Positions 4,039 through 36,248 of a stretch of DNA of 64,000 nt are shown piece after piece. Numbering within the stretch: the stretch's first letter is position 1; every line of letters begins with the position of its first letter. This stretch comes from Candidatus Gastranaerophilales bacterium (lineage in GTDB: Bacteria > Cyanobacteriota > Vampirovibrionia > Gastranaerophilales > CAJFVJ01), in NCBI GenBank assembly GCA_944323485.1, contig CALUSR010000001.1, positions 66,437 to 130,436 on the forward strand. The letters run 5' to 3'. The position numbers and the translations under genes are program-made. The notes under the pieces are model-generated. The model was not told the origin of the DNA. It saw only the letters and a list, made by a program, of their open reading frames with translations, and ran no database searches.

Positions 4039-4040
4039 CT

Positions 4041-5111: not shown

Positions 5112-5172
5112 CTGATATCCATCTGTTTTTATATCCCCGTATTATTTTATCACAACAGCAGGCTTTAGCATA

Positions 5173-12246: not shown

Positions 12247-12712
12247 TGTTATCAAATAATTTATACGCCTCATCAGGACTGTCTATGCCTCTGACTTTTT
12301 TCTCCATAGGGCAAAGATTATCGCCGGCTCTATTTTTAATATTATCAACAACTTTATCTGCTCTGTATTTGACATGATGCTTTTTGAAAACCTCAACAGC
12401 TGGCTTTGAAATTAAAGGAGTATAAACATATTTTGCCCCGCCGTAAACAAACAAAAGTGCAGCCGCTTTTCCTATAACCTTATCGCCTGCATAAGCTCTC
12501 TCAAAATCCTTATTCCTGACATAATCAACCAGCGGTTTTATCCCTCTGCCGTCATAAACTTCTGTCTTTCCTTCTTTTATGACAACAAGTGAATGTTCTG
12601 AAAGCTGTTCTCTCAAAATATCAATATCTTCTTTCGCCATGCCTGCATACGCAAAAGCTGACGACAAAATAACAGTAAATATAACAGCGGCAAAAAAGTT
12701 TAATATTTTCAT
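12233..12712 (-). CDS. DUF1893-family protein with N-terminal signal/anchor
   Basis: 159 aa. ...GDKVIGKAAALLFVYGGAKYVY...NRAGDNLCPMEKKV matches my recollection of the DUF1893 (TM1506-like) family. Confidence 0.5.
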   Translation of the reverse strand: MKILNFFAAVIFTVILSSAFAYAGMAKEDIDILREQLSEHSLVVIKEGKTEVYDGRGIKPLVDYVRNKDFERAYAGDKVIGKAAALLFVYGGAKYVYTPLISKPAVEVFKKHHVKYRADKVVDNIKNRAGDNLCPMEKKVRGIDSPDEAYKLFDNIIPQ

Positions 12713-12803
12713 AACCTGCCCTCTTAAGCTTGTTAATATTATAATTGCCGAGAAAAAATATTTCTACTACAATTTAGGTACAAAAACGCAGGACGTTCTA
12801 ATT

Positions 12804-16086: not shown

Positions 16087-18633
16087 CTAATCAGCCTTAA
16101 TGCTCAACACTTCATATCCGGCATTTGTTACCGCATCAGTCAAAATTTTGTCATCGATTTCTTTTGAACAAACAACAACAGCTGTCTTATTCTCAAGATT
16201 GACATCAACTTCGGCAACACCATCAAGCGCAGACAACACGTCATGAACTCTTTTCTGGCAATGAGCACACATCATACCATCTATTAGCATTATTTTTTTC
16301 ATATTTTTATCTCCTGCAAACAACTCTTTTTCTTTCGGCTGTTCTTCTATATTATCCCTAAACAAACGAATTCTCAATGCATTTGATACAACACACACCG
16401 AACTCAAACTCATGGCAGCAGCAGCAATCATCGGACTCAAAAGCAGACCAAAAGCAGGATATAACACACCGGCTGCAACAGGTATACCTATGATGTTATA
16501 AACAAAAGCCCAGAACAAACTGGTTCTGATGTTTTTCACAACTTCACCGCTAAGCCTGATTGCTCTGACAACATCGAGCAAAGAGTCCTTCATCAAAACA
16601 ACATCACCCGAGTCTACAGCAATATCAGTCCCCGCACCGATGGCAATACCGACATCAGCACGCACAAGAGCAGGTGCATCATTCACTCCATCGCCTACCA
16701 TGGCAACTCTATGACCGCTATCCTGCAGCCTGCCGACTTCTGCTTCTTTACCTTCAGGGCGAACATCGGCTATAACTTCATCAATCCCTACCTCTTTTGC
16801 AATTGACCCGGCAGTCAGTCTGTTATCGCCCGTTAATAAAATAACTCTCAACCCTGATTGTTTTAAATACATGACTGCCTCGGCACTCGTTTGACGAACG
16901 CTGTCTGCAACCGCTATCAGCCCCAAGAGTTTTTTATTTTTTGCAAAAAATAACGGTGTTTTCCCGAGATAAGAATATTTCTCCGACATTTTACCAAAAA
17001 ATGCAGAATCCTCCACCTCGTTCTCTGACATAAGCTTAATATTACCGGCAGTATATGATTCCCCGTCGATAACTGCCAGCACGCCCTTCCCGGGTATAAT
17101 TTCAAATTTATCGGGAGTTTTTATCTCTATGCCCTCTTCCTTTGCCTTGTTCACAACAGCCCCTGCAAGCGGGTGTTCACTTCCCTGTTCGATGCTCGCA
17201 GCAATTGAAAGAAAATCCTTTTCCGATAAGTTTGCAAACACCTCAACATCGGTAACTTTCGGACGTCCTGAAGTTACGGTTCCTGTCTTATCTAATACAA
17301 CCGTATCAACAGAATGCAGCCTTTCAAGACTTTCTGCAGATTTTATCAAAATACCGTACTCAGCTGCCTTACCCATCCCAACCATAATTGCAACAGGTGT
17401 TGCAAGCCCGAGTGCACACGGACATGAGATGACAAGCACTGATACCGCACAGTTGAAAGCAAACTCAAAACTCTGCCCTGCCGCAATCCAGCATATAGCA
17501 GTCAAAATAGCAATAACAATCACCGCAGGCACAAATATTCCGCTGATGCTGTCAGCAAGACGCGCAATAGGAGCCTTTGAACTTCCCGCCTCATCAACAA
17601 GTTTGATTATTCTCGCAAGAGTTGTGTCTTCTCCGACGTTTGAAGCCCGGAACCTAAAACTGCCGTTTTTGTTTACGGTAGCAGAAAGAACTTCATCACC
17701 GATATTTTTCTCAACAGGAATGCTCTCTCCCGTAATAGCGGACTGGTCAACATACCCGTAACCGTCTGTCACAACACCGTCGACAGGAATGCTTTCACCT
17801 GGTTTTATCAAAACAATATCACCCGATACAACCTGCTCGCTCGGAATAATAACTTCTTTTCCGTTTCTTATTATAACAGCTGTCTTTGGTGCAAGATTAA
17901 CAAGTTTATCAAGAGCATCGGAAGTCTTTGCTTTGGAGCGAGCCTCAAGATACTTCCCGACGGTAACAAGCGTAAGGATAGTCGCACATGATTCAAAATA
18001 AAGAACTTTAGAATATCTCAAGACAAAATCAAAGTTCCCGTGAGAAAATCCGTAAATCATCATATAAATTGCAAAAATCCCATACAGCAACGAAGCGCCG
18101 GCACCAATTGCAACAAGAGAATCCATATTCGGCATTTTGTTAAAAAAGGCTTTTATTCCTGAAACAAAAAAATGACCGTTTATTACAACAACGGGAATTG
18201 TCAGCAAAAACTGTGTGAACGCAAACAGAAGAGAATTTTCTTTACCTGATAAAAATAAAGGAACCGGCAGCAAAAGCATATGCCCCATCGAAATATACAA
18301 AAGAGGAATAAGAAAAATTATCGACAATATTAATCTCTGTTTAAGTTTCTTTTGATTTAAAACTTCTTCCTCTTTCCTTCTCTGCCACTCCCTGCGGAAA
18401 TCATTCCGCCCGCCGTGATGCTCAAACAAAAATGCACCATATCCCGCTTTTGAAACAGCCTCAGCAATTTTTTGAGAATCTGTCTTTAAGTCGTCGTATT
18501 TTACCACCATTGTGTTCGCAAGCAAGCTGACATCAACATCCGACACACCGTCGAGTTTTTGCACGCTTTTTGCAACATGTATCTGGCAGGCAGCACAGGA
18601 CATGCCTGTTATTTGAAATTTTTCCGTCTTCAT
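16087..18633 (-). CDS. copA: copper-translocating P1B-type ATPase
   Basis: N-terminal HMA (GMSCAAC), CPC in a TM helix (SCPCALGLATP), DKTGT, GDGVNDAP, and a second C-terminal HMA domain (GMMCAHC). The ATG at 18633 is preferred over the TTG at 18654. Confidence 0.9.
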   Translation of the reverse strand: MKTEKFQITGMSCAACQIHVAKSVQKLDGVSDVDVSLLANTMVVKYDDLKTDSQKIAEAVSKAGYGAFLFEHHGGRNDFRREWQRRKEEEVLNQKKLKQRLILSIIFLIPLLYISMGHMLLLPVPLFLSGKENSLLFAFTQFLLTIPVVVINGHFFVSGIKAFFNKMPNMDSLVAIGAGASLLYGIFAIYMMIYGFSHGNFDFVLRYSKVLYFESCATILTLVTVGKYLEARSKAKTSDALDKLVNLAPKTAVIIRNGKEVIIPSEQVVSGDIVLIKPGESIPVDGVVTDGYGYVDQSAITGESIPVEKNIGDEVLSATVNKNGSFRFRASNVGEDTTLARIIKLVDEAGSSKAPIARLADSISGIFVPAVIVIAILTAICWIAAGQSFEFAFNCAVSVLVISCPCALGLATPVAIMVGMGKAAEYGILIKSAESLERLHSVDTVVLDKTGTVTSGRPKVTDVEVFANLSEKDFLSIAASIEQGSEHPLAGAVVNKAKEEGIEIKTPDKFEIIPGKGVLAVIDGESYTAGNIKLMSENEVEDSAFFGKMSEKYSYLGKTPLFFAKNKKLLGLIAVADSVRQTSAEAVMYLKQSGLRVILLTGDNRLTAGSIAKEVGIDEVIADVRPEGKEAEVGRLQDSGHRVAMVGDGVNDAPALVRADVGIAIGAGTDIAVDSGDVVLMKDSLLDVVRAIRLSGEVVKNIRTSLFWAFVYNIIGIPVAAGVLYPAFGLLLSPMIAAAAMSLSSVCVVSNALRIRLFRDNIEEQPKEKELFAGDKNMKKIMLIDGMMCAHCQKRVHDVLSALDGVAEVDVNLENKTAVVVCSKEIDDKILTDAVTNAGYEVLSIKAD

Positions 18634-18710
18634 ATTTCTATTCTTTCTTTGCAAAAAGAAATATTCCGCTTCTATTTATAATAGCACATAACTCATCATC
18701 AACATTTTCA

Positions 18711-19220
18711 TTAAAAACAACCGTATAAACTTTTATACTCATCAACAACAGTATCGTTAATATCTGCAAAAATAATTTTATCAAAGCAGTCATCATGTGA
18801 AATAAACTCTTGAACTACACCTGATGCAATTTTACAGGCTTTATCAACGGGAAATCCGTAAACTCCGCATGAAACAGCAGGAAAAGCAATTGTTTTGATG
18901 TTATACTTTTTTGCCAGTTCAAGAGCTGTCTTATAACAGGATTTCAGAAGTTCACACTCATTTTTTCCCCCGCCGTACCAAACAGGACCGACTGTGTGGA
19001 TTACATATTTTGCCTGCAAATTATAACCCTTTGTAATCTTTGACTGCCCCGTTTCACACCCTCCAAGAGTTCTGCACTCTTCAACAAGCTTTCTGCCGGC
19101 AGCACGGTGAATTGCTCCGTCAACTCCTCCGCCGCCGAGAAGAGTCCTATTTGCCGCATTGACAATTGCATCAACCTGCAGCTTTGTAATATCACATTTT
19201 AAAATTTCTATTTCAGTCAT
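18711..19220 (-). CDS. macro domain protein (O-acetyl-ADP-ribose deacetylase/YmdB-like)
   Basis: 169 aa. [25 protein letters not shown] and VIHTVGP are typical macro-domain motifs. Confidence 0.85.
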
Positions 19221-19317: not shown

Positions 19318-21999
19318 ATGAATACAAAAAACTCTGACGTTAAAATAAGAAATTCAATTAAAGAATTTGTCGAATACTGGAAAGATAAAGGCTACGAAAA
19401 AGGCGAAAGCCAAAAGTTCTGGCTTCAACTCTTGAGAGATGTCTTATGTATCGAACATCCGGAACAGTTCATTTCTTTTGAGGATAAAGTTCTCCTCGAC
19501 CATACAAGTTTTATTGACGCTTATATCCCTTCTACAAAAGTCTTAATTGAACAAAAAAGCTCTGATAAAGATTTAAATAAGGCTATAAAACAATCTGACG
19601 GCAGTTACCTGAACCCGTTTCAACAGGCAAAAAGATATATATCAGAACTTCCGCTTTCACAACACCCCAGATGGGTGGTAACATGCAATTTCCAAAAATT
19701 TCGTGTCTATGATATGGAACGCCCGAACGGTGAACCTCAGGAAATCTTATTGAAAGATTTGGAAAAAGAGTACTACAGACTCTCCTTTCTTGTAAACAGC
19801 GGAAGCGAACACCTGAAAAAAGAAATGGAAGTATCAATACAGGCAGGCAATATCGTCGGACTTCTTTATGATGCACTTTTGAATCAATATATTGATAAAA
19901 CAAGCGAAAAAACTCTCAAAAGTTTGAACATTCTCTGCGTCAGACTCGTTTTTTGTCTGTATGCGGAAGATGCCGGAATATTCCCGAAACATAACCAGTT
20001 TCTTGATTACCTCTCTCTCTTTGAAACAAACAGGATGAGAAAAGCCCTAATCGAACTGTTCGAAGTGCTAAACACAAAACCTGAAGAAAGAGACCCTTAT
20101 CTGGAACAGGAACTTGCTGCATTCCCCTACGTAAACGGCGGATTGTTTGCTGATGAACACATCGAAATCCCGAATTTCACGGACAAAATTCGAGATTTGC
20201 TCCTGAATAAAGCCAGCGCCGATTTTGACTGGTCAGAAATAAGCCCTACAATTTTCGGAGCGGTTTTTGAAAGTACCCTGAATCCTGAAACGAGAAGAAA
20301 AGGAGGAATGCACTACACCTCAATCGAAAATATACACAAAGTCATTGACCCGCTCTTTATGGATGAGCTCACTTCCGAATTTGAAGAAATCAAAAACTCC
20401 CCCCATGGAAAACTTCGGGATAAAAAACTTACAAGCTTTCAGGACAAACTTGCCTCATTAAATTTTCTTGACCCTGCCTGCGGCAGCGGGAATTTTTTGA
20501 CCGAAACTTATATTTCTCTGCGTAAACTCGAAAACGAAATTTTGTTCGAACTGCAAAAAGGTCAAATAACAATAGGACTTGTTACAAATCCCATAAAAGT
20601 TTCTATCTCCCAATTTTTCGGCATTGAGCTTAATGACTTTGCCGTAACTGTCGCCAAAACAGCTCTCTGGATTGCAGAATCCCAGATGATGAAGAAAACT
20701 GAAGACATTGTCCATATGGATTTGGATTTTCTGCCGCTAAAAACCTACGCTAATATTGTTGAATGTAATGCTTTGCGAATAAATTGGGAAGATGTCATTC
20801 CGAAAGACAAACTCAACTACATCATGGGCAACCCGCCGTTTGTGGGGTATTCTTTACAAACAAAAGAACAAAAAGAAGATATTATCTCAATTTATGTTGA
20901 TGAAAATGGCAAATCTTACAAAACTTCAGGTAAAATAGACTATGTTGCAGGCTGGTATTTTAAATCTTCAGAACTGATGCAAAACTCAAATATAAAAACA
21001 GCGCTTGTTTCAACAAACTCTATTACTCAGGGAGAGCAGGTTGCAGGTGTTTGGAAACCGTTGTTTGACAGATTTAATATCCATATTGATTTTGCACACA
21101 GAACTTTTAGATGGGATAGTGAATCAAATTCAAAAGCTCATGTCCATTGCGTGATTGTAGGTTTTAGCTGCACACCAAACAGAAATAAAAGAAAATTGTA
21201 TACAAATGAACGCATGCAGCTTGTTGATAATATTAATGCATATTTGATTGATGCACCGAATGTTTTTATAGAAAGCAAAAATCAACCGATATGTAATGTT
21301 CCCAAAATGACAACAGGCAACCGTCCTGCTGACGGAGGTCATCTTATAATAGAAGCCGAAGATTATGAGGAATTTATAAAAAAAGAGCCAAAAGCAAAAC
21401 AGTATATTAAACGCCTAACCGGAGCATTAGAGTTTATAAACAACAAACCTCGTTATTGTTTATGGCTTGTGGGAATAACTCCAAACGAATTAAGAGCAAT
21501 GCCAGAAGTTCTAAAAAGAGTCGAAGCATGTAAAGAAGACAGACTAAATGGAGCCGAGGACAGACAAAAACTGGCAGCTACTCCCTGGTTGTTCAGAGAG
21601 ACTAATTGTCCGAAATCATATATTATAGTTCCGGCAACATCTTCAGAAAATAGAAAATATATTCCTATGGGATTTCTAGATAATAATACAATAGCCACAA
21701 ATGCTGCAATTATCATACCAAATGCAGATAAATATTATTTTGGAATTTTGGAATCAAACGTACACATGGCATGGACAAAAGCTGTATGTGGCAGATTAAA
21801 GAGCGATTACCGTTATTCAAAAGATATTGTTTACAACAACTTTCCATGGTGCACCCCGACAGATGAGCAAAAAGCAAAAATCGAAAAAACTGCACAGGGA
21901 ATTTTGGACGCACGTGCCTTATACCCTGATTGCTCGCTTGCTGATTTGTATGATGAACTCACAATGCCTCCTGAACTCAGAAAAGCACATCAAGTGTAA
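19318..21999 (+). pseudogene. MmeI-family type IIL/IIG restriction-modification enzyme, 5' portion; C-terminal 44 codons displaced by an insertion
   Basis: N-terminal PD-(D/E)xK (FIDAYIPSTKVLIEQK), SAM motif LDPACGSGNFL and catalytic GNPPFVG. The frame reads ...ELRKAHQ, then V-stop inside foreign DNA. The in-frame continuation ENDKAVMEAYGF... is at 36692 onwards. Confidence 0.8.
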
Positions 22000-22123: not shown

Positions 22124-22711
22124 ATGAAGTTAAATTCAGTAGATATTATTCTTTTACTTTTGTATAGCCCAGGTTACACTGACATGATTAACGAACCGAT
22201 AGATGGGCGAACAAAAATTACTAAAATGTTGTTTTTATTTGAAAAAGAGTTAGCTAAAAAGTTTAAATTAGATAAATTAACGGGAAATGAAGATATTTTT
22301 CGATTTACAGCATGGAACTTCGGTCCTATGTCAACAACGATATTTAAAAATTTAGATTTTTTAAAAAACATTGGCTTTGTAGAAAGCACTTATGCGACTT
22401 CTTATAGTGTTACCGCAGAAGAAGTAAGTGAATATAATCATTATTGCAATGAGTTAATTGAAAACGAAAATAATATAACAGAGTATAAAAGTGAGAAATT
22501 TTGTCTTACTGCAAAAGGAATAAAATTTATTGATGATAAGGGCAAATATCGTTTATTATCAGATAATCAAAAAAAATATTTAAGAGAGTTTAAATCTAAG
22601 CTCAATGGTGCAAATTTGAGAGATATTTTACGATATGTCTATATGACATATCCAAATTATACAGAAAAATCGATAATTAAAAATGAGGTGTTGGGAGATA
22701 ATGATGTCTGA
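22124..22711 (+). CDS. SocA/Panacea (YwgA-like, DUF4065) domain protein, candidate antitoxin
   Basis: 195 aa. GRTKITKMLFLFEKE...FRFTAWNFGPMSTTIFKNLDFL matches the Panacea pattern (K.QKLLYL...F.AW..GPV...vY). AAGGAG SD. Confidence 0.5.
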   Translation: MKLNSVDIILLLLYSPGYTDMINEPIDGRTKITKMLFLFEKELAKKFKLDKLTGNEDIFRFTAWNFGPMSTTIFKNLDFLKNIGFVESTYATSYSVTAEEVSEYNHYCNELIENENNITEYKSEKFCLTAKGIKFIDDKGKYRLLSDNQKKYLREFKSKLNGANLRDILRYVYMTYPNYTEKSIIKNEVLGDNDV

Positions 22712-23276
22712 TTTACAAATTGTGCCAGTAGTTTATCCTATAATTTCAGGGGTTCTTACTTTAGGAATATCATTATTCAGTTTATTTTCTCCATTTGTTG
22801 GTACAGAAATAGAGTTTACAAAAGATGCAAATTGGTATCTTTCCAAATTACAAGGTATGCGTATAGACAAATTAAAAAGGTTTATTTCTGAAGTTTTAAA
22901 TTTAAAAGTCGCAGAAGATAATTCCGAAGATAATAGAATGCCTTATGTTGTAGATATATATGAGTATTTCTCTACAGACATGGAAGAAATTATCCATCTT
23001 GAAAATAAAATAAAGCATTTTCTCAATAAATATAGAATAACAATGACTTCTTTTATGATTGTTCTATGGTTGTCCGTTACGTCAATTATTATTAGTTTAA
23101 TATTTAAACAAATAATAAAGTTAAATATTTTTTTAAATTACATTTTTTATTTTGCCATATTATTAGTATTAGTACAACTATTTAATATTATATATCTTCG
23201 TTACTTGTTTATAAATTCTCAAAATACGTATCAATTGCACATTTTTAGAGGAAAAGAAAAATGGAATATGAAATAG
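22701..23276 (+). CDS. three-TM membrane protein, candidate toxin/effector
   Basis: Start at the ATG at 22701 (GGGAGA SD), overlapping the upstream stop by 11 nt. One N-terminal TM (VVYPIISGVLTLGISLFSLF) and two C-terminal TMs (FMIVLWLSVTSIIISLIF; IFYFAILLVLVQLFNIIYL). Confidence 0.5.
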   Translation: MMSDLQIVPVVYPIISGVLTLGISLFSLFSPFVGTEIEFTKDANWYLSKLQGMRIDKLKRFISEVLNLKVAEDNSEDNRMPYVVDIYEYFSTDMEEIIHLENKIKHFLNKYRITMTSFMIVLWLSVTSIIISLIFKQIIKLNIFLNYIFYFAILLVLVQLFNIIYLRYLFINSQNTYQLHIFRGKEKWNMK

Positions 23277-23695
23277 ATATGGTTAATAAAGCAATTAAAT
23301 TTTATACTAATTTAGGATATAAAGTTTGTACAGAAGTTCCATTTTTACATCGTTCTATTGATTTAGTATATGAAAATAATGGGCAGTTAAATTCTGTTGA
23401 ATTTAAAAGAAGGGACTGGAAAAGAGCTTATGCACAAGCAAAAACACATATTTATGGATCAGATAAGGTTTATGTATGCATATTAAAGCCGTCAAAAGGT
23501 ATATCGCAAGAACTTAAAGATTATTTTAAGGATAGCCCGATAGGTCTATTAGTTTTTGATGAAACAAATACAAATTCTTTAATAGAAGAAATTTTTCCAG
23601 CTTCTAATGAACATAAAAAATGGAATATAGGTCAACAATGGTTAAAAAAAGCTTTTAACAAAAGACTCGAGGAGGAATTATGCCACAACAGTTAA
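23261..23695 (+). CDS. small PD-(D/E)xK nuclease-fold protein
   Basis: 144 aa. TEVPF...SIDLVYENNGQLNSVEFK gives an E...D-x13-E-x-K arrangement. GAGGAAAAG SD. 16-nt overlap with the upstream gene. Confidence 0.45.
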   Translation: MEYEIDMVNKAIKFYTNLGYKVCTEVPFLHRSIDLVYENNGQLNSVEFKRRDWKRAYAQAKTHIYGSDKVYVCILKPSKGISQELKDYFKDSPIGLLVFDETNTNSLIEEIFPASNEHKKWNIGQQWLKKAFNKRLEEELCHNS

Positions 23696-25065
23696 AGCAT
23701 TTAATGCGATTAGGTACTCATGGTGAAAAAAAATATTTTAAAGATTTTAAAGAATATTATGATGCGGTAATCATTAATGCAAGCATGATTGCTCATACTG
23801 TTAATTCAATGTCTACTTTTTTAGGTTGTGAACTTTCAAAACCATTTATCATTGATCCTCAAACATATGCGTTTCAATCATATACGCATCTATTACAACA
23901 AAGTAAAAACAAAAAAGATATTTCAGATGTTAAAGTAAAAAAATCTTTTTGCACTTTAATAGAAAACTATGGCGAAATGTTAAAAAAGATTATATTTGAT
24001 GAAAAACGCTCTATTAAAAGTTCTGATTTTAAGAATGATGATAACCAAAATTTGAAAGATTTTTGTAAAAATGTTTTAAAATATCAATTAGAAACAATCA
24101 CATCAGAAACACAAAATAATTCAGAATATAGTGAATATATTGAATATGAAATTGAAAATTGCAAAGATAATTTATCTTTAACTTTAGTCCCTGCTTTTTT
24201 AATTGCTCCATATTTTTATATGACACCTAATACATATTCGGATTGGATTGATATAAATATAGATGCTATAAATATTTCAAAAGAATTAAATTCCAAAGAT
24301 ATTGAAATTTATGCACAAATTGTAATTGATAAAGATATATTGTTAGATGATAGTAAAATTGAAGAATTGTGTGATAAATATAATTCATCAAGTGCGGAAG
24401 GATTTCTTATTTGGTTAGATAAATTTGATGAAAAAGAAGTAAGTGAAATTTATCTTGAAAAATTTATTAATTTTTTAAAATTATTGAAATGCAATGGAAA
24501 ACCGATATATCAAGTTTATGGTAGTTATTTTTCTATTGTTTTGACAAAAGATATACTTTCAGGAGTTTGTCATGGTATGGAATATGGTGAAAATAGAGAT
24601 GTTTATCCTGTAGGTGGCGGGATTCCTGTTTCGAAATTTTATTATCCAGCATTACACAAACGTTTATTATATCGTGATGCTTTAGATTTATTATTGAGAA
24701 ATGGATATTTGGAAGATTTAGAGGTTTACAATTCTAATGTATGTAATTGCAAAAATTGTCAAGAAATTATTAATACTCCAATTGAAGATTTTTCAAAATA
24801 TGGTGATGTTAATTCAACAACATTTAAACGAAAATCAGGCAATAGAGAATCTACTGTAACAATGGATTATCCAACTAATGATGCTAAAGATCTATGTTTA
24901 AGACATTATTTATACAATAAAATTACAGAATATAAATATGTTGAAAGCAAAAGTTATTCAGATTGTGCCGAAGATTTAATTCAATCATATAATAAGTACT
25001 ACGATTATTTAGGAGACAATGTTGATTATTTGAAGACTTGGCATAATATAATATTAAAAATTTAA
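23680..25065 (+). CDS. 461-aa unknown protein with tRNA-guanine transglycosylase/DpdA-like motifs (tentative)
   Basis: PFIIDPQTYAFQ (cf. TGT TDSGGFQ), GVCHGMEYGENRD (cf. GVDMFDCVMPTRN), CNCKNC (CxCxxC zinc motif) and a downstream LRHYL (cf. YLHHL). GAGGAGG SD. 16-nt overlap with the upstream gene. Confidence 0.3.
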   Translation: MPQQLKHLMRLGTHGEKKYFKDFKEYYDAVIINASMIAHTVNSMSTFLGCELSKPFIIDPQTYAFQSYTHLLQQSKNKKDISDVKVKKSFCTLIENYGEMLKKIIFDEKRSIKSSDFKNDDNQNLKDFCKNVLKYQLETITSETQNNSEYSEYIEYEIENCKDNLSLTLVPAFLIAPYFYMTPNTYSDWIDINIDAINISKELNSKDIEIYAQIVIDKDILLDDSKIEELCDKYNSSSAEGFLIWLDKFDEKEVSEIYLEKFINFLKLLKCNGKPIYQVYGSYFSIVLTKDILSGVCHGMEYGENRDVYPVGGGIPVSKFYYPALHKRLLYRDALDLLLRNGYLEDLEVYNSNVCNCKNCQEIINTPIEDFSKYGDVNSTTFKRKSGNRESTVTMDYPTNDAKDLCLRHYLYNKITEYKYVESKSYSDCAEDLIQSYNKYYDYLGDNVDYLKTWHNIILKI

Positions 25066-25068
25066 AGT

Positions 25069-26229
25069 ATGATGAAAAAAAATAAAAAATTAAGAGTATT
25101 TGAAGCTTTTGCAGGATATGGTAGTCAACGAATGGCTCTTCGTAATATTGGTATTCCTTTTGAAATAGTTGGAATTTCCGAAATTGAAGGAGAAGTTATT
25201 CGCTCTTATGCTGCTATTCATACTGATTTTTTAGAAAAAAGAAAAAATTTAGATAAATTTGTTAATCTTGATAAAGAAGAACTAATTGCTTTTTTAAAAA
25301 AACTCAATGTTCCGCTTGATTATAAAACATTTGTAAATAGAGCTCCTAAAATGAAAATAGAGCAGCTCAAAGAAATGTATCTTGCAAATAAATTAATTAA
25401 TAACTTTGGTGATATTACAAAAATTGATCCTGAAAAATTACCAGATTTTGATTTGTTTACATATTCTTTCCCTTGTCAAGATATCTCTGTTGCAGGATAC
25501 CAAAATGGTTTAAATGAAAGCTCCGGAACCAGATCTTCGTTGTTATGGGAATGTTGCAAAATCATAGAGGCAAAAAAACCTAGATATTTAATGATGGAAA
25601 ATGTTAAAAATCTAGTGGGCTGTAATCACAAAGCAAACTTTTTGAAGTTTTTAAGATATCTTGAAACTATTGGATATAAAAACAGATGGGCTGTTTTAAA
25701 TGCAAAAGATTATGGCACTCCACAACATCGAGAAAGAGTTTTTTGTATAAGTATTTTAGATGAAATGAATTATTTTAGATTTCCTAAGCCAGAACCCTTA
25801 ACAACAAAGTTAGCAGATATTTTGGAACAAGATGTTAATGAAAATTTCTACTTAAAAAATAATCAATTCATGGATTGCCCTATAGTACAAGATTATAGTT
25901 ATTGTATAGATTCCAACTATTGGAAAGGCTCTACATTAAGTAGTTTTTTAGAAAAACGCAGACGTCAATTAGTTACAGATAAAATTAATGAATATGGTGA
26001 ATATATGGTACGTCGTTTAACTCCGCATGAAGCTTGGAGATTAATGGGTGTATCTGATGAAGATTTTCACAAAGTTTCTTCTATAATGAGTAATACTAGT
26101 TTATATAAGCAGGCTGGAAATAGCATTGTAGTAAGTGTTTTAGAACGTATTTTTGCTAATTTATTTATTAATTACGATACAACTATACAAGACCCAGATT
26201 TTGCAGTACAATTACCTTTATTTAACTAA
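25069..26229 (+). CDS. DNA (cytosine-5)-methyltransferase
   Basis: Motifs FEAFAGYGS (I), SFPCQDIS (IV), ENVKNL (VI), QHRERVF (VIII) and GNSIVV (X). Confidence 0.9.
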   Translation: MMKKNKKLRVFEAFAGYGSQRMALRNIGIPFEIVGISEIEGEVIRSYAAIHTDFLEKRKNLDKFVNLDKEELIAFLKKLNVPLDYKTFVNRAPKMKIEQLKEMYLANKLINNFGDITKIDPEKLPDFDLFTYSFPCQDISVAGYQNGLNESSGTRSSLLWECCKIIEAKKPRYLMMENVKNLVGCNHKANFLKFLRYLETIGYKNRWAVLNAKDYGTPQHRERVFCISILDEMNYFRFPKPEPLTTKLADILEQDVNENFYLKNNQFMDCPIVQDYSYCIDSNYWKGSTLSSFLEKRRRQLVTDKINEYGEYMVRRLTPHEAWRLMGVSDEDFHKVSSIMSNTSLYKQAGNSIVVSVLERIFANLFINYDTTIQDPDFAVQLPLFN

Positions 26230-26248
26230 ATTTTAATAGAGGTATTTG

Positions 26249-27058
26249 ATGACTGCAAAAGAAGATATCATAGAATTGTTCCATAAAAACGTAAAAGGCA
26301 AAAGACCGAATGTCGAAGGAACAAATGAAAGACACGATGGTAGACAAGGACAATGGCTAGAACATCAATTTGGTATTCATTCTAATGACTATAATGCAGC
26401 TGACTTATGGGGATATGAGTTAAAAAATGAAACGACATCCAAAACAACATTTGGAGATTGGTCAGCAAATGAATATGTTTTTAATAATCCGGAATACCGT
26501 GATTATTTTGCAGGCACTAGTAAATTTGAAAAAAGAGAAGATTTTTTAAGAATATTTGGTAAACCTAATGAAGAAAAAGGTGGAAGATGTTCTTGGTCTG
26601 GTTCTCCTTGTCCCAAAATCAAATGCTTTAATGATTTTGGACAAAAACTTGTTATTGATAAGAATAAAGATATTTTGGCTATATACTCATACAGTCAAGA
26701 TAAAAGAATAAACAAAGCTGAAATAGTACCCAAAAGTTTGCAGTTAGAAGAATTAGTGTTAGCACGTTGGTACGGTGAAATATCACCAACTACTAAAAAA
26801 AGAGATAAATGTTTAAAAGCCAAATTAGAAGATAAATTTAATGATAAAGGTTGGTTTACATGTAAAACAGATGCGACGGGATGTTATTGTAAAATCTGTT
26901 TTGGCAAACCAATGAATTATGACGAATGGTTGGAGCTAGTAAAACAAGGAATTGTATTCTTTGATAGTGGTATGTATCAAGGCAACAAAAGACCTTATTC
27001 ACAGTGGCGTGCAAATAACAATTTTTGGGATAGTTTAATAGAAGAAACTTATGAATAA
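26249..27058 (+). CDS. type II restriction endonuclease (PD-(D/E)xK, MvaI/BcnI- or ScrFI-like)
   Basis: About 270 aa, located between two m5C MTase genes. GQWLEHQFGI...AADLWGYELK carries a D-x5-E-x-K catalytic motif similar to MvaI/BcnI-type enzymes. Confidence 0.55.
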   Translation: MTAKEDIIELFHKNVKGKRPNVEGTNERHDGRQGQWLEHQFGIHSNDYNAADLWGYELKNETTSKTTFGDWSANEYVFNNPEYRDYFAGTSKFEKREDFLRIFGKPNEEKGGRCSWSGSPCPKIKCFNDFGQKLVIDKNKDILAIYSYSQDKRINKAEIVPKSLQLEELVLARWYGEISPTTKKRDKCLKAKLEDKFNDKGWFTCKTDATGCYCKICFGKPMNYDEWLELVKQGIVFFDSGMYQGNKRPYSQWRANNNFWDSLIEETYE

Positions 27059-27131
27059 ATTGTGTCGATGTGATAAAAAAATATGCTTAATATAATAGCT
27101 TATTGCTCTTTCTTATGCTAATATTCAAGGT

Positions 27132-28079
27132 ATGAAATCAAAAAAGAAAGTAAAAATAATTGATTTGTTTGCAGGAATCGGTGGAATTAGACTTGGTTTT
27201 GAACAAGCTTTTAATGGAAATGTAGAATGCGTATTTACAAGCGAAATTGATAAATATGCGGTACAAACATACATTGAAAACTTTGGGTCAGACAATATTT
27301 ATGGAGATATAACTCAAATATCAGAAAAAGATGTTCCAGATCACGACATTTTACTTGCAGGGTTTCCTTGTCAACCATTTTCTCAAGCTGGTTTAAAAAA
27401 GGGATTTAATGACACTAGAGGAACATTATTTTTTGATATTGAAAGAATTTTACTTGAAAAGAAGCCAAAAGCTTTCTTGTTAGAAAATGTCAAACAGTTA
27501 AAAGGGCACGATAAGGGAAATACTTTAAAAGTTATACTTGAACACTTGCATAATGCAGGATATAAAACTTTTGTGAAAGTTCTTGCAGCGAAAGACTTTG
27601 GAGTTCCACAAAATCGTGAACGTATATATATTGTTGGATTCCTAGATAATAGTATAAATTTTGAATTTCCAGAACCAACATTAAAAGAAACTAAAGTTGG
27701 AAATATATTAGAAAATAATCCTGATGATAAATATACAATCTCTGATAAATTATGGGCTGGACATCAAAGAAGAAAATTAATGCATAAAGAAAAAGGGAAT
27801 GGTTTTGGATATGGATTATTTAATGCAAATAGTCCTTATACTAATACTATTTCAGCACGTTACTATAAGGATGGCAGTGAAATTTTAATAGAGCAAGATG
27901 GGAAAAACCCACGGAAATTAACCCCAAGAGAGGCCGCAAGATTGCAAGGATTCCCAGAAGAATATAAAATTACAGCTGTATCAGACAATCAATTATACAA
28001 ACAATTTGGTAATAGTGTATGTGTTCCAGTTATAGAAAAAATTGCTGAAAGAATAAAAGTTAATCTTGAGCAAGATTAG
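27132..28079 (+). CDS. DNA (cytosine-5)-methyltransferase (M.HhaI-like core)
   Basis: DLFAGIGG, GFPCQPFSQAG, TRGTLFFDI, ENVKQL, QNRERIYIVG and QFGNSVCVPV. Confidence 0.9.
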   Translation: MKSKKKVKIIDLFAGIGGIRLGFEQAFNGNVECVFTSEIDKYAVQTYIENFGSDNIYGDITQISEKDVPDHDILLAGFPCQPFSQAGLKKGFNDTRGTLFFDIERILLEKKPKAFLLENVKQLKGHDKGNTLKVILEHLHNAGYKTFVKVLAAKDFGVPQNRERIYIVGFLDNSINFEFPEPTLKETKVGNILENNPDDKYTISDKLWAGHQRRKLMHKEKGNGFGYGLFNANSPYTNTISARYYKDGSEILIEQDGKNPRKLTPREAARLQGFPEEYKITAVSDNQLYKQFGNSVCVPVIEKIAERIKVNLEQD

Positions 28080-29739
28080 TTTTTATAAGTTTTTCACTAT
28101 CCACCTTAAATTCTTTTGGTAAGAAGTTCAAAAAACTTTTTACTGAATATATATTATTAATTAACCCTTTAAATTTATAGTTTTCGTCCAATATATAACC
28201 TGAAAATTCATCAATTAATTTATATACATAGCCTTTATATTTATCTTTATACAAAATACCTATTTTTTTAGGAATATTATGTTCTAGATAACATATAAAT
28301 AAAGGCGAGTTTTTTGTAACATTAAAACTTGGTTTAAGATTTAAATAATTAAATTTATTAGAATAATTACCATCTTTTTTTCTTTTGTATACAATTTCAG
28401 AAGTTAAAGCATCTGTAACATATACGAAACTCGTTTCAATTTTTTGAAAGCCAATACAAACTTTATTTAATTTACATTCATAACAAGCTAATGGATTTTG
28501 TTTTCTGAATTCACCATTACCATTGGTTCCATACCTTTGACACCATAATAATTCCATATATTCTCTTATATTTGTTTTATTTGCTTGACTAGTTAACCAT
28601 ATTAGCCGTTCTAATTTTCCTAAATTATTAAATTGGTTAAAAAAATCATCTTTATTATCTATACCAAGAGCAAATCTATAAAATGTATCAATCCAAGTAT
28701 CAATAGGTATGACATTTGAATTTGCAAAGCCCTGTTGTATGAAACACGCTACTACTTTTTCAGAACATCCCTTTATTCCTGCATTATAAAATTTTTCAAA
28801 AAATACTTTATTCCATAAATTATAATCTGTATTCATAATAGTCATGATTGACCATATAAAGAAACAAGCACGCCACGAAAATCGATTAAAAGCATCGATT
28901 AAAAGCTCAATTTGATATTTATCTCCATTATTAAAGTCTATATTTGTGTCTTTGACCCAAGGTACTAACTTACTTTTTGTAAATTTTTCTTTATTTTGTT
29001 CCCAAGCATGTGGAATAGCTTTAAAAACAATGTCATCTATTTTTACTATTTGTGTATAATCTAATTTCCAAACTTTATACATAGACTTATATAAAGTTTC
29101 AAATTTAGAAAATTTTGTAAAATTTTGTTCTCTTACATCTTTATATATAGGCAATAAATAAAATTCTAAAAAATTCCATTGAGGAATTTCTTTATTATCT
29201 ATAGAAATTTTTTCACCAAAAGTACTTAAAAAATTATAAAGCATGCGCATTTCACTTTGCCTGCCTGTTTTAGGGCTAAATGCTGCAACAAAACGAATTA
29301 TTGAATATATCTCCTCATAAAAACGTCCAAAAGGTAATATATTTCCATATATGTTTGAACAAATATCAAATAAACTTGATAAAAAAGATTTATATTTTTG
29401 TGGAGATGCATCTATTATGTCTTGTTTTGTAACAGGATCAGATATTCCTATTCTATTTTTTAATTCTGTTCTTACAATTTCCCTAAATTTTGAATTTTCA
29501 GAAGCATTCAAATTTATATTGCTATAAAATAGAAAAATTACATTACAGGTTCCATTATTTTTATATTTTTGAGCTTTCATAGTTACAGGAAAACCATATA
29601 TTCTGGTATTATCTATAATTGTATGTACATATACAATTGGAAATCCTGGTAAATCAGGATAAAATAATTCTATTTTTGGTAACCATTTGACAGGGACGTT
29701 GTCAATCTCTATTTCGCTTGAATATTTGATTTTTTCCAT
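28060..29739 (-). CDS. 559-aa protein with an HhH-GPD/FeS-cluster-loop DNA glycosylase-like domain
   Basis: AGIKGCSEKVVACFIQQGFANSNVIPIDTWIDTFYRFALGI parallels the EndoIII sequence LPGVGRKTANVVLNTAFG...VDTHIFRV. LLWCQRYG...NPLACYECKLNKVC parallels LHGRYTC...PRCGSCIIEDLC. It converges on and overlaps the second MTase gene by 20 nt. Confidence 0.4.
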   Translation of the reverse strand: MEKIKYSSEIEIDNVPVKWLPKIELFYPDLPGFPIVYVHTIIDNTRIYGFPVTMKAQKYKNNGTCNVIFLFYSNINLNASENSKFREIVRTELKNRIGISDPVTKQDIIDASPQKYKSFLSSLFDICSNIYGNILPFGRFYEEIYSIIRFVAAFSPKTGRQSEMRMLYNFLSTFGEKISIDNKEIPQWNFLEFYLLPIYKDVREQNFTKFSKFETLYKSMYKVWKLDYTQIVKIDDIVFKAIPHAWEQNKEKFTKSKLVPWVKDTNIDFNNGDKYQIELLIDAFNRFSWRACFFIWSIMTIMNTDYNLWNKVFFEKFYNAGIKGCSEKVVACFIQQGFANSNVIPIDTWIDTFYRFALGIDNKDDFFNQFNNLGKLERLIWLTSQANKTNIREYMELLWCQRYGTNGNGEFRKQNPLACYECKLNKVCIGFQKIETSFVYVTDALTSEIVYKRKKDGNYSNKFNYLNLKPSFNVTKNSPLFICYLEHNIPKKIGILYKDKYKGYVYKLIDEFSGYILDENYKFKGLINNIYSVKSFLNFLPKEFKVDSEKLIKTNLAQD

Positions 29740-31319: not shown

Positions 31320-31940
31320 TTATACATCTTGTAATCTTGATATCCTGCGAACTTCATATTCCGGAATTTGGTATTTTTCTCTTATGTCATCTTCGTAATT
31401 TATATAAAGGTCATAGAGTTTGTAGTTAAAAAATGATTTATCGCTATTTAGACAAGGTATTCTTTTTATGTCTTTATAACTTATTGCAGGAACATAAGAT
31501 TTATCTGAGCCTTGCAACATAAATTCCAAAAGGATATATCTGGTTATAACTTCCGCAAATTTTGGAGCTATCTCCATATATTCTTTAGCAACTGTTTTCA
31601 TTATTGATTTGATATAATCTTGAAACGCTTCTTGTTTCTTTACTCTGGCATTATATATATTTATTTGCAGGCTTTTCTTTTTATTATCTACACCTTTAAT
31701 TAAATCTTGATTAACCTCTATTTCTTCTTCAATTTTCTTTAGTCTTTTATTGATTTTAGAAACATCTTTCCCTTCTGCAAGTAAAGCAGGACGCTCCTCT
31801 TTTAGTTTTACGATTTCATCTTGCAGGGTTTTGATTTTATCTTGTGCTTGCTCCTTTCTTTCATCCATTGCTTTTATTTCGCCAAAAAATTTTCTGCATT
31901 CCGAAAATACTCTTTCCATTTTTTCCTTTGCATCTGTCAT
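31320..31940 (-). CDS. coiled-coil protein, unknown function (transposon module)
   Basis: 206 aa. The N-terminal half is a heptad-rich Lys/Glu coiled coil. It is the last gene of the minus-strand transposition block. Confidence 0.45.
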   Translation of the reverse strand: MTDAKEKMERVFSECRKFFGEIKAMDERKEQAQDKIKTLQDEIVKLKEERPALLAEGKDVSKINKRLKKIEEEIEVNQDLIKGVDNKKKSLQINIYNARVKKQEAFQDYIKSIMKTVAKEYMEIAPKFAEVITRYILLEFMLQGSDKSYVPAISYKDIKRIPCLNSDKSFFNYKLYDLYINYEDDIREKYQIPEYEVRRISRLQDV

Positions 31941-31955
31941 ATAAGCTCCTTTCTT

Positions 31956-32156
31956 TTACTTTAAATTTCTGTAATTAACACCAAGCTCATAAAATATGAA
32001 AATTTCAAAATCTCTGTTATATCTTTCTCCATTTATGAGTCTTGTAATGTATGACTCCGACATTTTTAACTTCTTAGATAAAGCTTTTTGAGTAATTCTT
32101 TTATATGCCAAGGCTCTTTTAATATTTTCCATTCTTTTCTTAAGAAACATCAGCAA
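31956..32156 (-). CDS. XRE/Ner-like helix-turn-helix protein
   Basis: 66 aa. ITQKALSKKLKMSESYITRLINGE HTH. Confidence 0.55.
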   Translation of the reverse strand: MLMFLKKRMENIKRALAYKRITQKALSKKLKMSESYITRLINGERYNRDFEIFIFYELGVNYRNLK

Positions 32157-32161
32157 ACTCC

Positions 32162-32836
32162 TTAATTAAACACTATTCTGTTTAAACTGAATTCGTTTCT
32201 CGGAGTAAGTCTTTTAACTTGAAAACTAAAACTGTTATTTGTAAAACCTTTATGATTTGCATAACTTAGCACTTGTTTTAATAAAGCCATTGTATTTTTA
32301 AATCTTCTCGGACTTAAATCCTTTTCTTCGCAATATCTAAAAAAGTCTTTTATAACAGAATCATCAATTTCTTCAGGTCTTTTTGTTTTGAAGTACGGTA
32401 AAATATGGTTCTTTAATAATGAGCGATAAGTTTGTATGGTACTTGGAGTGCAAAATTTTGCAGCATATTTTTCAAGAAAATTGTTTATAATTTCATAAAA
32501 AGAAAAATTTTCGCTTAGTTCATTATGTGGTACAAAAAATCCGTAATTTTTAGGCTTGTCGGACTTTTCTTTTTTCTCTTTTTCTTTCTGTTTTTGTTTA
32601 AATTTATCATATTCGCTTCCTTCAATAAAAGGTTTTACACGTGTTGTTTTAGGCGGTTCAAAGTTTTCAAAATCTTTGATAAAAAGATAGCCTTGTGTAT
32701 CTTTTTTAATCACGTTTTCTGTAATCAATTGTTCAAGAAGTTGGTTTAATTCTTCTTTTGGCATTTCTGCAAGCATAAAAATTTCATTGTAAGTAAAAGC
32801 TTTTAATTTTCTTGCAAGATAAATAAGTTTTTCCAT
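32162..32836 (-). CDS. DNA-binding protein: winged-helix N-terminus plus integrase-type SAM-like core-binding domain, no catalytic domain
   Basis: 224 aa. Lys-rich linker. The C-terminal TIQTYRSLLKNHILPYF...IKDFFRYCEEKDLSPRRFKNTMALLKQVLSYA resembles the N-terminal SAM-like domain of tyrosine recombinases. Confidence 0.45.
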   Translation of the reverse strand: MEKLIYLARKLKAFTYNEIFMLAEMPKEELNQLLEQLITENVIKKDTQGYLFIKDFENFEPPKTTRVKPFIEGSEYDKFKQKQKEKEKKEKSDKPKNYGFFVPHNELSENFSFYEIINNFLEKYAAKFCTPSTIQTYRSLLKNHILPYFKTKRPEEIDDSVIKDFFRYCEEKDLSPRRFKNTMALLKQVLSYANHKGFTNNSFSFQVKRLTPRNEFSLNRIVFN

Positions 32837-32848
32837 TTGTTCTCCTTT

Positions 32849-33538
32849 CTATTTCAATAAAAACCGCATATCTTTTAAGGTTATAATTGATAAATCATTT
32901 GCTTTGGCATAATTTTCGGCTTTATCTATAATCTTAACTATCTGTCGAAATCTGTTTTCCGTATTTTGTATGTGTTCTATAGCGGAATTATCAAATTTAA
33001 TTTCTGATAGCTCATTGATAAGATTTTTTGTGTCTTCAACCGAAAATTTTTGAAACTGTAATATCTCGGATAACCTGTCATACAAATGCTTATAGCGTTT
33101 TATTTTTTTATCAGCATAACTCATACCGATTAGAATAATAGGTGTATGTGTTCTGTCATGGATATCTCGGAGCATTTCAATTGTTGATTTTTCTTGGGTT
33201 AAATAATCAATTTCATCAACAATAATTAATCGTGGTCTTTTAATCAATTCACGTGTTATTTGTTCAAATATGTCCGCTGTTCTATAAAAAGGACTATCGC
33301 CGAGTTCTTTTACTATTTCTTCCAGCAGCCATTTTGTTGACATAGATTGTTTTGCACTCACAAATATCGCATCATCTTGGTGATTTGATACCCACCAAAT
33401 AGCAGCTCGAGATTTTCCAAGACCTGGCTCTCCATATATTAATGCCATCCCAGGTACACCTTGTGCTCTGTTTTGCAGGTTATTTATGGTGCTGATAAAA
33501 TTTTTCACGTTCTTTGTATTAACAAATACAGGCTTCAT
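32849..33538 (-). CDS. AAA+ transposition ATPase (MuB/TniB/TnsC-like)
   Basis: Start at the ATG at 33538 (AAAGGAG SD). Walker A GEPGLGKS and Walker B LIIVDEID. Located immediately downstream of the transposase. Confidence 0.75.
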   Translation of the reverse strand: MKPVFVNTKNVKNFISTINNLQNRAQGVPGMALIYGEPGLGKSRAAIWWVSNHQDDAIFVSAKQSMSTKWLLEEIVKELGDSPFYRTADIFEQITRELIKRPRLIIVDEIDYLTQEKSTIEMLRDIHDRTHTPIILIGMSYADKKIKRYKHLYDRLSEILQFQKFSVEDTKNLINELSEIKFDNSAIEHIQNTENRFRQIVKIIDKAENYAKANDLSIITLKDMRFLLK

Positions 33539-35723: not shown

Positions 35724-36248
35724 GTGAACGAAAACGAAAAAATTAAACAAATCAGAAAATCTTTAAATCTTACTCAACAGGAAATTGCAGACAGTATAGG
35801 AGTAAGTAAACAATATTTTAGCAGAGTAGAAAACGGAATAACCGAACTTAGTAAAGAAAAAGCTACTATGTTATGTAATAATTACGGAATTTCTCTTGAT
35901 TGGTTACTTTGTGATAAAGGTGGCATGTTTATAAACGATAATACGATTACAAACAACCTATTGAATGACACCGATAATATACAAGGTGTATCAAGTATAT
36001 TAGGTGCGTTTTCAACTTACTTGGAAGTAGTATTTCCAATTATAGAATCAGAACATCCGAAAGCTTTAATAAGAGATAAAATAAGAGCTACTCAAGAACT
36101 TTTCTTTAATGATTTATTTAAAAGTGATAGAGTTTTGAAAACTCGTAAAGAACTAAAAAGTATATTGGAAAAAGATTTTGCGGATAAAGAGAAAGTTTTA
36201 AATGCTTATTACAAAGCTTATGTAGAAAGATGTGAAAAAAATAATTAA
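35724..36248 (+). CDS. XRE-family repressor (Mu c-like position)
   Basis: 174 aa. LTQQEIADSIGVSKQYFSRVENG HTH. Divergent from the transposase and reading toward the element end, as the Mu c repressor does. Confidence 0.65.
   Translation: MNENEKIKQIRKSLNLTQQEIADSIGVSKQYFSRVENGITELSKEKATMLCNNYGISLDWLLCDKGGMFINDNTITNNLLNDTDNIQGVSSILGAFSTYLEVVFPIIESEHPKALIRDKIRATQELFFNDLFKSDRVLKTRKELKSILEKDFADKEKVLNAYYKAYVERCEKNN

Follow-up and report, generated by a model that had tools for sequence, protein, structure and literature searches.

A zinc-motif barrel protein related to tRNA-guanine transglycosylases as the likely regulator of an unnamed four-gene defence operon

Introduction

Enzymes of the tRNA-guanine transglycosylase (TGT) type were long regarded solely as modifiers of tRNA; DpdA, which acts on DNA, and Cap10, which acts on protein, show that immunity has borrowed their chemistry, and a preprint of 2026 predicts such borrowing for the P4 beta/TIM-B family as well. 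Does the DNA studied here, a stretch of 64,000 nucleotides from a Candidatus Gastranaerophilales bacterium (contig CALUSR010000001.1; below, the window), hold a further case of this kind? The gene in question, gene D (positions 23680–25065, forward strand), is an open reading frame (ORF) for the 461-residue protein P0001, predicted to be a divergent TIM barrel of the TGT superfamily, and the last of four overlapping genes A to D. An earlier note, made from the sequence alone, had described TGT- or DpdA-like motifs in this protein; a divergent enzyme of this kind, adjacent to a nuclease and carried on a transposon, would in its view point to base exchange in DNA, as with the DpdA-type enzymes that insert 7-deazaguanine. 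We consider it rather likely that gene D codes for an enzymatic sensor or regulator and that, within an unnamed anti-phage system of four genes, which is of the abortive-infection type and carried as transposon cargo, it is the gene with the highest conservation. The layout is assigned to this type because it combines a PanA antitoxin-like protein, a small nuclease, and alternating SIR2 and membrane effectors.

Results and Discussion

Conservation of gene D

On re-reading of the sequence, the 461-residue ORF and the four motifs pointed out in the earlier note were all found in place: PFIIDPQTYAFQ comprises residues 55–66 of P0001, GVCHGMEYGENRD residues 295–307, CNCKNC residues 355–360, and LRHYL residues 407–411, with H409 lying 49 residues C-terminal of C360. 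In an alignment of 37 family members (30–81% identity), residues D59, P60, T62, E304, R306, C355, C357, C360, and H409 are invariant. A larger set comprised 235 full-length homologues sharing 27–99% identity with P0001 (median 36%). Among these, the acidic and barrel residues D59 (99%), P60 (100%), W245 (100%), E304 (98%), R306 (97%), and E417 (100%) are retained, as are the candidate zinc ligands C355 (99%), C357 (97%), C360 (99%), and H409 (100%). Loss of the CxCxxC motif in homologues, which the earlier note had named as evidence against its assignment, was thus not observed; the ligands are kept in 97–100% of the 235 sequences. Judged by this conservation, the motifs are genuine signatures of the family and not chance strings.

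The family is large and carries no name. A word-indexed search with P0001 yielded 292 clusters, every one of them unnamed or annotated as 'hypothetical', and an exhaustive profile search yielded 1,061 representative clusters at E ≤ 1e-3 (531 at E ≤ 1e-30). Searches of Pfam, NCBIfam, PADLOC, and PDB sequences with P0001 by means of phmmer and profiles gave zero matches. When the 37 family members were compared to Pfam, PF01702 (Tgt/ArcTGT) and PF14350 both remained unmatched even at E ≤ 10. The ESM Atlas contributed unnamed clusters only, collections of plasmids and phages remained without a tblastn match to P0001, and a search for longer fused forms of gene D found none, which is weak evidence. 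In a literature search, neither the family nor its operon was found described.

Predicted fold and relationship to TGT enzymes

A model of P0001 was calculated with AlphaFold2 (AF2) from the 37-sequence alignment without templates. Its confidence is high, with a predicted local distance difference test score (pLDDT) of 91.3 and a predicted template modelling score (pTM) of 0.90. The predicted structure is a beta/alpha barrel with a helical insertion of approximately 110 residues (62–170) after strand 3; the C-terminal module consists of a zinc subdomain, helices, a beta-hairpin (377–398), and two long helices. Where the barrel strands end on their C-terminal side, residues D59, P177-Y178-F179, W245, E251, G281, H298, E304, and R306 are conserved in a manner that resembles an active site.

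A Foldseek search of the PDB with this model returned at its top almost exclusively tRNA-guanine transglycosylases, with E-values of about 1e-4. In an independent structure search (VIA Z scores) against 48,161 PDB representative chains, ArcTGT (1iq8) ranked first with a Z score of 22.1, 303 aligned residues, and a root mean square deviation of 3.2 Å. It was followed by bacterial TGT (3unt, Z 19.2), QTRT2 (6fv5, Z 17.0), DpdA (7ui4_A, Z 14.6), and Cap10 (9ntn_B, Z 14.4). These five best representatives all belong to the TGT superfamily and align over some 300 residues of barrel and zinc subdomain; beta-amylase (1b90, Z 13.7) was the first generic TIM barrel, and other ordinary barrels did not exceed 13.7. 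In a second run, TGTs reached Z scores of 19–22, with model residues 1–438 aligned and the zinc subdomain included; the values were up to 19.8 for the bacterial enzyme from Z. mobilis and 21.9 for tRNA-bound ArcTGT (1j2b). The absence of any TIM-barrel or TGT relationship, which the earlier note had considered as an objection to its proposal, is thus not what the structure searches indicate.

Profile comparison gave a different result. When the 37- and 235-sequence family profiles were compared by means of hhalign to alignments of 30 Tgt and 7 TIM-B (PF14350) sequences, probabilities of 0.2–1.4% were obtained; they were 1.2–1.4%, which is not significant, for Tgt, and below 1% for TIM-B. Even so, these insignificant paths register strands 5–8 and the CxCxxC motif of the gene D family with Tgt. 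In a PF01702 scan of the own genome, the canonical Tgt on contig 2 was the sole match. Comparison of P0001 with this protein by eye revealed collinear motifs strand by strand (xGT; N..(Y)H; xDxxxxFQ; GxxIxxxxxxE; KPxY..G; GV...R; CxCxxC). The spacing within GxxIxxxxxxE (after strand 6) and within GV...R (11 residues, after strand 8) is the same in both proteins. Membership of P0001 in the TGT structural superfamily is therefore well supported by the predicted structure, and its assignment to PF01702 proper is not supported because the profile is unmatched. Of the TGT/DpdA assignment made earlier, the superfamily part stands on structure and zinc motif; the DpdA-type role in DNA modification does not and is discussed below.

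Putative zinc site and catalytic residues

The zinc ligands of the canonical TGT from Z. mobilis are C318, C320, C323, and H349. In the own-genome Tgt, the fourth-ligand histidine is found in an LLSIHN stretch, 26 residues after the third cysteine. For H409 in LRHYL, the predicted fourth ligand of P0001, the motif chosen for comparison in the earlier note has to be corrected: the canonical ligand is the histidine of LLSIHN and not that of Y-I-K-H-L. The larger distance between cysteine and histidine in P0001 (49 residues compared to 26) agrees with the predicted hairpin at 377–398.

In Z. mobilis TGT, the catalytic pair consists of D102, the general acid/base, and D280, the nucleophile. D59 of P0001 is part of the xDxxxxFQ motif after strand 3, which resembles T-D-S-G-G-F-Q of TGT. 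The position of the TGT motif D-M-F-D contains no Asp in P0001; it reads C297...M300, with E301 and E304 adjoining. These residues are compatible with an apparent replacement of the second catalytic Asp, to which the earlier note had drawn attention. Where TGT has the guanine-recognising Asp (A-F-D-E-C strand), P0001 reads A-P-Y-F-Y. Because this Asp is without an evident counterpart, it is possible that P0001 does not act on a base of the guanine type. Taken with the model, these residues suggest that gene D codes for a member of the TGT superfamily that probably contains zinc and is probably catalytic.

Operon structure and exchange of the effector

The genomic context of the family was surveyed by a scan of a genome collection, which yielded 80 loci from many phyla; genes were called by a crude, greedy longest-ORF procedure and then clustered. 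Note that this caller makes errors: antisense ORFs replace gene C in L020 and L022, and overlong starts of gene D mask gene C in L010, L014, L021, L035, and L047. Among the neighbours of gene D, conservation in many of the 80 loci is limited to four clusters: the PanA protein (gene A), the PD-(D/E)xK nuclease (gene C), a protein with three transmembrane (TM) segments (gene B), and a SIR2 protein. Their order is A-(B)-C-D-(SIR2) in 79 of the 80 loci.

The effector is of one type or the other. The TM protein alone, as in the window, is found in 37 loci and the SIR2 protein alone in 33, and no locus contains both. In loci of the SIR2 type, gene B is missing and the SIR2 protein directly follows gene D, which it always adjoins; the TM gene adjoins gene A. 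Nine loci that seem to break this rule are mostly explained by the end of a contig or by errors in ORF calling. When the effector labels are placed on a gene D tree, at least three changes are needed for SIR2 and at least five for TM, and tree neighbours come from unrelated phyla. The effector has been exchanged at least three times.

The distribution of the operon is patchy. Of 131 genomes from the order, 2 contain the gene D family, and a genome of the same genus lacks it; canonical Tgt is found in all 41 genomes of a phylum sample. Hosts include gut Melainabacteria, Planctomycetota, Bacillota, and bacteria of the Candidate Phyla Radiation (CPR). Moorella mulderi DSM 14980 (L035), which has an operon of the SIR2 type, is the sole isolate with a DSM culture-collection number among the 80 loci.

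Two loci of the SIR2 type deserve separate mention. In M. mulderi, a second SIR2 protein of 831 residues with a TPR-SIR2 architecture (3443–5938, forward strand) is encoded besides the 377-residue SIR2 protein of the operon, at a distance of about 1 kb upstream from the first gene of the operon and of about 2 kb from gene D. A contig labelled Escherichia coli (CAVGNR010000002.1, L065) contains a copy beside genes for an HpaII-type restriction-modification (RM) system and Vsr. Since its gene D clusters with copies from Clostridia and Bacteroidota in the tree, the label may be a binning error or the result of recent transfer.

Partner genes of gene D

Gene A (22124–22711, forward strand) codes for a protein of 195 residues with a Panacea (PanA/SocA-like) antitoxin-type domain on a winged helix and a helical C-terminal part. 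It was found in 73 of the 80 loci, and 22 of 36 orthologues match PF13274 (SocA_Panacea) with a best E-value of 4.6e-5. The window protein also matches the winged helix-turn-helix model HTH_45 and, with residues 127–192, the PADLOC model PDC-M19A (1e-9). The PADLOC candidate PDC-M19 was ruled out as the identity of the system; only this part of gene A matches PDC-M19A, and the other genes match no PDC model. In the PDB, the AF2 model of gene A (pLDDT 88) is most similar to the DarTG toxin-antitoxin complex 7yk3, with whose chain D it aligns over 149 residues at Z 8.7, followed by winged helix-turn-helix regulators with Z scores of at most 7.3.

Gene B (22683–23276, forward strand) codes for a small membrane protein of 197 residues, whose TM helices, one near the N-terminus and two near the C-terminus, were located by hydropathy at 13–31, 123–141, and 154–172. 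It matched nothing in Pfam or PADLOC. At the same position in other loci, all 37 genes encode proteins with two to three TM segments in the same layout, and their sequences are nearly unalignable. Gene B is predicted to be a membrane-disrupting effector.

Gene C (23261–23695, forward strand) codes for a small protein of 144 residues with a PD-(D/E)xK nuclease fold and an intact E...D...ExK...Q set. Residues E4, D34, E47, K49, Q59, and G95 are invariant in 34 orthologues, and its weak matches are solely to PD-(D/E)xK families (MTES_1575, Hjc, HSDR_N, MmcB, CoiA_nuc, Mrr_cat, and AF1548 of the PDB). The genes overlap by 29 nt (A/B), 16 nt (B/C), and 16 nt (C/D), and the four genes are translationally coupled. 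A promoter and terminator scan of this AT-rich DNA was uninformative (49 sites compared to 44.5 expected).

Defence island and transposon

The operon is situated in a defence island. Immediately upstream lies a full-length gene for a type IIG RM enzyme of the MmeI family (19318–21999, forward strand), which contains all five MmeI Pfam domains and matches the PADLOC model REase_MTase_IIG with 1143 bits. Downstream, a methylase-endonuclease-methylase cluster (25069–28079, forward strand) codes for a C5 cytosine methylase of 386 residues, an endonuclease of the LlaMI/MvaI-BcnI family of 270 residues, and a C5 methylase of 315 residues; this layout resembles that of the lactococcal ScrFI (CCNGG) system. 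The first methylase starts 4 nt past the stop of gene D, and the LlaMI-type endonuclease gene follows 1.2 kb downstream of gene D. A functional link between gene D and the downstream C5 methyltransferase was considered and rejected, as cytosine methylase and endonuclease genes lie on either side or are absent in other loci. Convergent with the cluster is an ORF of 559 codons (28060–29739, reverse strand), which has no match in Pfam, NCBIfam, or PADLOC and may be a further cargo gene of the island.

A transposition module (31320–35498, reverse strand) encodes a 659-residue protein with a Mu-transposase C-terminal domain, a 241-residue TniB/AAA_22 ATPase, and a 224-residue phage-integrase SAM-like protein; the Mu/Tn7-like transposase and TniB genes lie at 32.8–35.5 kb. 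A gene for an HTH_3 repressor-like protein follows (35724–36248, forward strand). The defence genes at 19–30 kb look like cargo of a Tn7/Tn5053-like element. With the PD-(D/E)xK gene overlapping gene D by 16 nt, the LlaMI-type endonuclease, and the Mu/Tn7-like transposase and TniB, the nuclease neighbourhood and the transposon location given in the earlier note are borne out. Near the left side of the island are genes for a UvrD-family helicase (12579–15725, forward strand), whose N-terminal region of approximately 530 residues is without family assignment, and a stand-alone Macro domain protein of 169 residues (18711–19220, reverse strand); a copper/heavy-metal P-type ATPase is encoded between them (16087–18654, reverse strand). 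A similar setting is found elsewhere: HpaII RM and Vsr genes lie upstream of the operon in L003–L005, and of nine large neighbours sampled from nine other loci, seven match defence models for type IIG, BrxC, HKD+Snf2, type III restriction endonuclease, DUF499/HmaC, or SNF2 proteins.

Proposed mechanism and alternative explanations

In the reading that we favour, the constant trio of genes A, C, and D would serve sensing and gating, and the killing module would be interchangeable, being the 3-TM protein in the window or a SIR2 NADase elsewhere. Gene D would perform TGT-type chemistry: a flipped-out base would be bound and its glycosidic bond attacked with the help of the carboxylates of D59 and E301/E304. 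Two kinds of substrate are conceivable, a nucleic acid and a partner protein, the latter by analogy with Cap10. In the uninfected cell, gene D together with the nuclease and the PanA protein would hold the effector silent. Infection would perturb the activity of gene D or bring a foreign substrate, and the effector would be released. The cell would then be killed or arrested by membrane damage (window type) or depletion of NAD+ (SIR2 loci). A more specific proposal is advanced with less than even confidence: that this is a widespread new defence system of approximately 1,000 clusters in many phyla including CPR, in which nucleobase exchange or excision by the TGT-like enzyme, acting independently of 7-deazaguanine on a nucleic acid or a partner protein, senses infection or gates the release of a SIR2 or membrane effector.

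Several points weigh against a role of gene D as an enzymatic regulator. The homology to TGT rests on structure prediction and motifs, and profile methods show no link. The equivalence of D59 to D102 and the placement of E301/E304 near D280 are putative, the Cys3-His metal site and its geometry are predicted, and the guanine-recognising Asp has no obvious counterpart. QTRT2, a non-catalytic TGT paralogue that has kept its zinc site, matches the model at Z 17.0. Three loci (L039, L046, L080) contain the core without a recognisable effector, and the presence of two antitoxin-like components, PanA protein and TGT-like enzyme, in one system lacks an explanation. What the analysis shows is the fold in the model, the conservation of the candidate zinc ligands and acidic residues, the operon, the mutual exclusion of the effectors, the defence-island setting, and the patchy distribution; catalysis, substrate, direction of regulation, and abortive outcome are inferred.

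The alternative closest to the earlier note is self-marking by a DpdA-like enzyme: gene D would replace a base of host DNA with 7-deazaguanine or another non-canonical base, and the PD-(D/E)xK nuclease would cut unmodified incoming DNA. The fold, the position of DpdA among the top five structural matches, the intact and translationally coupled nuclease gene upstream, and the location among RM systems would all suit such a system, and with QueC and Tgt the own genome has a deazaguanine pool. However, the DpdA score of 14.6 barely exceeds that of generic barrels (13.7) and is far below the values of 19–22 reached by tRNA enzymes. A DpdB-like ATPase, queC/D/E, or folE is conserved in none of 79 loci. 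As the earlier note had stated, genes for preQ0 synthesis are missing from the window; a whole-genome scan placed the sole real QueC match on another contig. Five CPR hosts, which have small genomes, lack a genuine QueC: their best match, a 400-residue protein, scores 32 bits compared to 196 bits in the own genome, with the caveat that metagenome-assembled genomes are incomplete; Tgt is still present in four of the five. Furthermore, SIR2 and membrane effectors and a PanA domain, partners of the abortive-infection type, are foreign to modification-restriction systems, and the nuclease, with only about 140 residues, has no separate DNA-reading domain. We therefore regard DNA self-marking as unlikely, and the DpdA-type role proposed earlier is not retained.

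Three further explanations were considered. Gene D might itself be a toxin that removes or exchanges bases in tRNA, rRNA, or DNA (depurination-type) upon loss of PanA, with SIR2 and TM proteins as back-up effectors. The best structural matches act on tRNA, among them tRNA-bound ArcTGT 1j2b, the carboxylates are conserved, and a wide range of unrelated toxins is neutralised by PanA domains according to their Pfam description and to preprint text. Yet gene D is constantly accompanied by a single dedicated type of effector, SIR2 or 3-TM, which suggests that killing is left to that protein, and the placement of SIR2 beside gene D and TM beside gene A fits regulator-effector pairs. In gene context the nearest analogue is P4 beta, for which negative regulation and not toxicity is predicted; a toxic gene D thus appears improbable. 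A non-catalytic scaffold or receptor of the QTRT2 kind, which would bind phage nucleic acid or protein and only relay a signal, would explain why the canonical nucleophile and the guanine-binding Asp are not recognisably retained. It fits less well because the near-invariance of polar residues at the catalytic barrel face (D59, E251, H298, E304, R306, R328, E417) at 27–99% identity typifies an enzyme more than a fast-evolving receptor, and we give it only a small chance. That gene D is a housekeeping enzyme for tRNA or metabolite modification, present in a defence island by accident, would agree with its TGT-family fold and the uniform database name 'hypothetical protein'; it is very improbable given that only 2 of the 131 genomes from the order contain the gene, compared to 41 of 41 genomes of the phylum sample for Tgt, the constant four- or five-gene operon with SIR2 or TM effectors, defence-gene neighbours that recur in unrelated phyla, and a gene D tree in conflict with taxonomy.

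If the more specific proposal of gating by nucleobase exchange or excision is correct, immunity would have recruited TGT chemistry independently for a third time, beside DpdA and Cap10, and the family would connect tRNA TGTs with the TIM-B/P4 beta proteins as a link that has kept its zinc site. The operon also shows that the logic of the P4 gop-beta-cII locus extends far past enterobacterial satellites. In size the family resembles many named defence families, yet it is without a model in Pfam, NCBIfam, or PADLOC; it has kept the ancestral zinc site. The compact operon of 2.9 kb is suited to the study of a transglycosylase role in phage sensing. The present analysis contributes the predicted fold of gene D, the family-wide operon, and the alternation of effectors.

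Comparison with known systems

With Tgt/ArcTGT (PF01702), the gene D family shares the predicted (alpha/beta)8 barrel, the C-terminal zinc subdomain with CxCxxC...H, and collinear motifs including xDxxxxFQ after strand 3. It differs by the 110-residue insertion after strand 3 and the hairpin ahead of the zinc histidine. P0001 is without the D-M-F-D nucleophile and the guanine-binding Asp of A-F-D-E-C, and it has no PUA or C-terminal tRNA-binding domains. Furthermore, Tgt/ArcTGT are universal housekeeping enzymes, whereas gene D is an accessory gene of a defence operon. With PanA toxin-antitoxin pairs, the operon shares a Panacea-domain gene directly ahead of a small membrane protein; in contrast to such pairs, gene A is always embedded with nuclease and TGT-like enzyme, and in SIR2-type loci it is not beside the effector.

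DpdA has a TGT-superfamily barrel and a defence-island location in common with gene D, but the loci studied here are without linked dpdB-K or deazaguanine synthesis genes and contain partners of the abortive-infection type. Cap10 of the type IV cyclic-oligonucleotide-based anti-phage signalling system (CBASS) is likewise a TGT-family enzyme recruited for anti-phage defence, where it deazaguanylates a protein partner (10.1101/2025.04.06.647259). However, the 80 operon loci contain no conserved gene for Cap9/QueC-like, Cap11, CD-NTase, or OGG-like proteins, and the structural similarity is below that to the tRNA enzymes. PADLOC found no CBASS match among the genes of the window.

The TIM-B systems come closest in organisation. 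TIM-B (PF14350, beta of phage P4) is a TGT-related barrel with alternative effectors, among them a sirtuin, 2TM proteins, and a new restriction endonuclease; the same source predicts constitutive negative regulation by TIM-B (bioRxiv October 2026, 10.64898/2026.10.19.760177, section 33). The gop-beta-cII locus has been described as a toxin-antitoxin-like abortive or cell-death locus with a phage gene as the trigger (10.1101/2023.04.06.535777). In a sample of 301 genomes of the phylum, PF14350 genes were found in seven (L085–L091; G018, G036, G066, G081, G169, G221, G225), all from one taxonomic family of the order Gastranaerophilales. Their loci comprise a 2TM protein, a 182-residue protein, TIM-B, and a convergent, overlapping PD-(D/E)xK gene of 207 codons, a layout that resembles P4 gop-beta-cII. 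Gene C is homologous to this linked endonuclease (hhalign probability 93%, E 3.5e-7). Both kinds of system thus combine a constant TGT-related barrel gene with alternative effectors (sirtuin, small TM proteins) and a homologous endonuclease. P0001 itself was rejected as a TIM-B protein: PF14350 matched neither P0001, nor the 37 family members, nor the own genome, and the seven TIM-B sequences lack CxCxxC...H, which P0001 has kept, and all signature motifs of the gene D family. The systems further differ in that the TIM-B operons have a metallopeptidase where the gene D operon has a PanA protein, their nuclease gene is convergent whereas gene C is co-directional and translationally coupled, and their membrane effector has two TM segments instead of three. 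The best description of the gene D family is that of an architecture sister to the TIM-B systems, one that has retained the zinc site and is structurally nearer to the tRNA enzymes.

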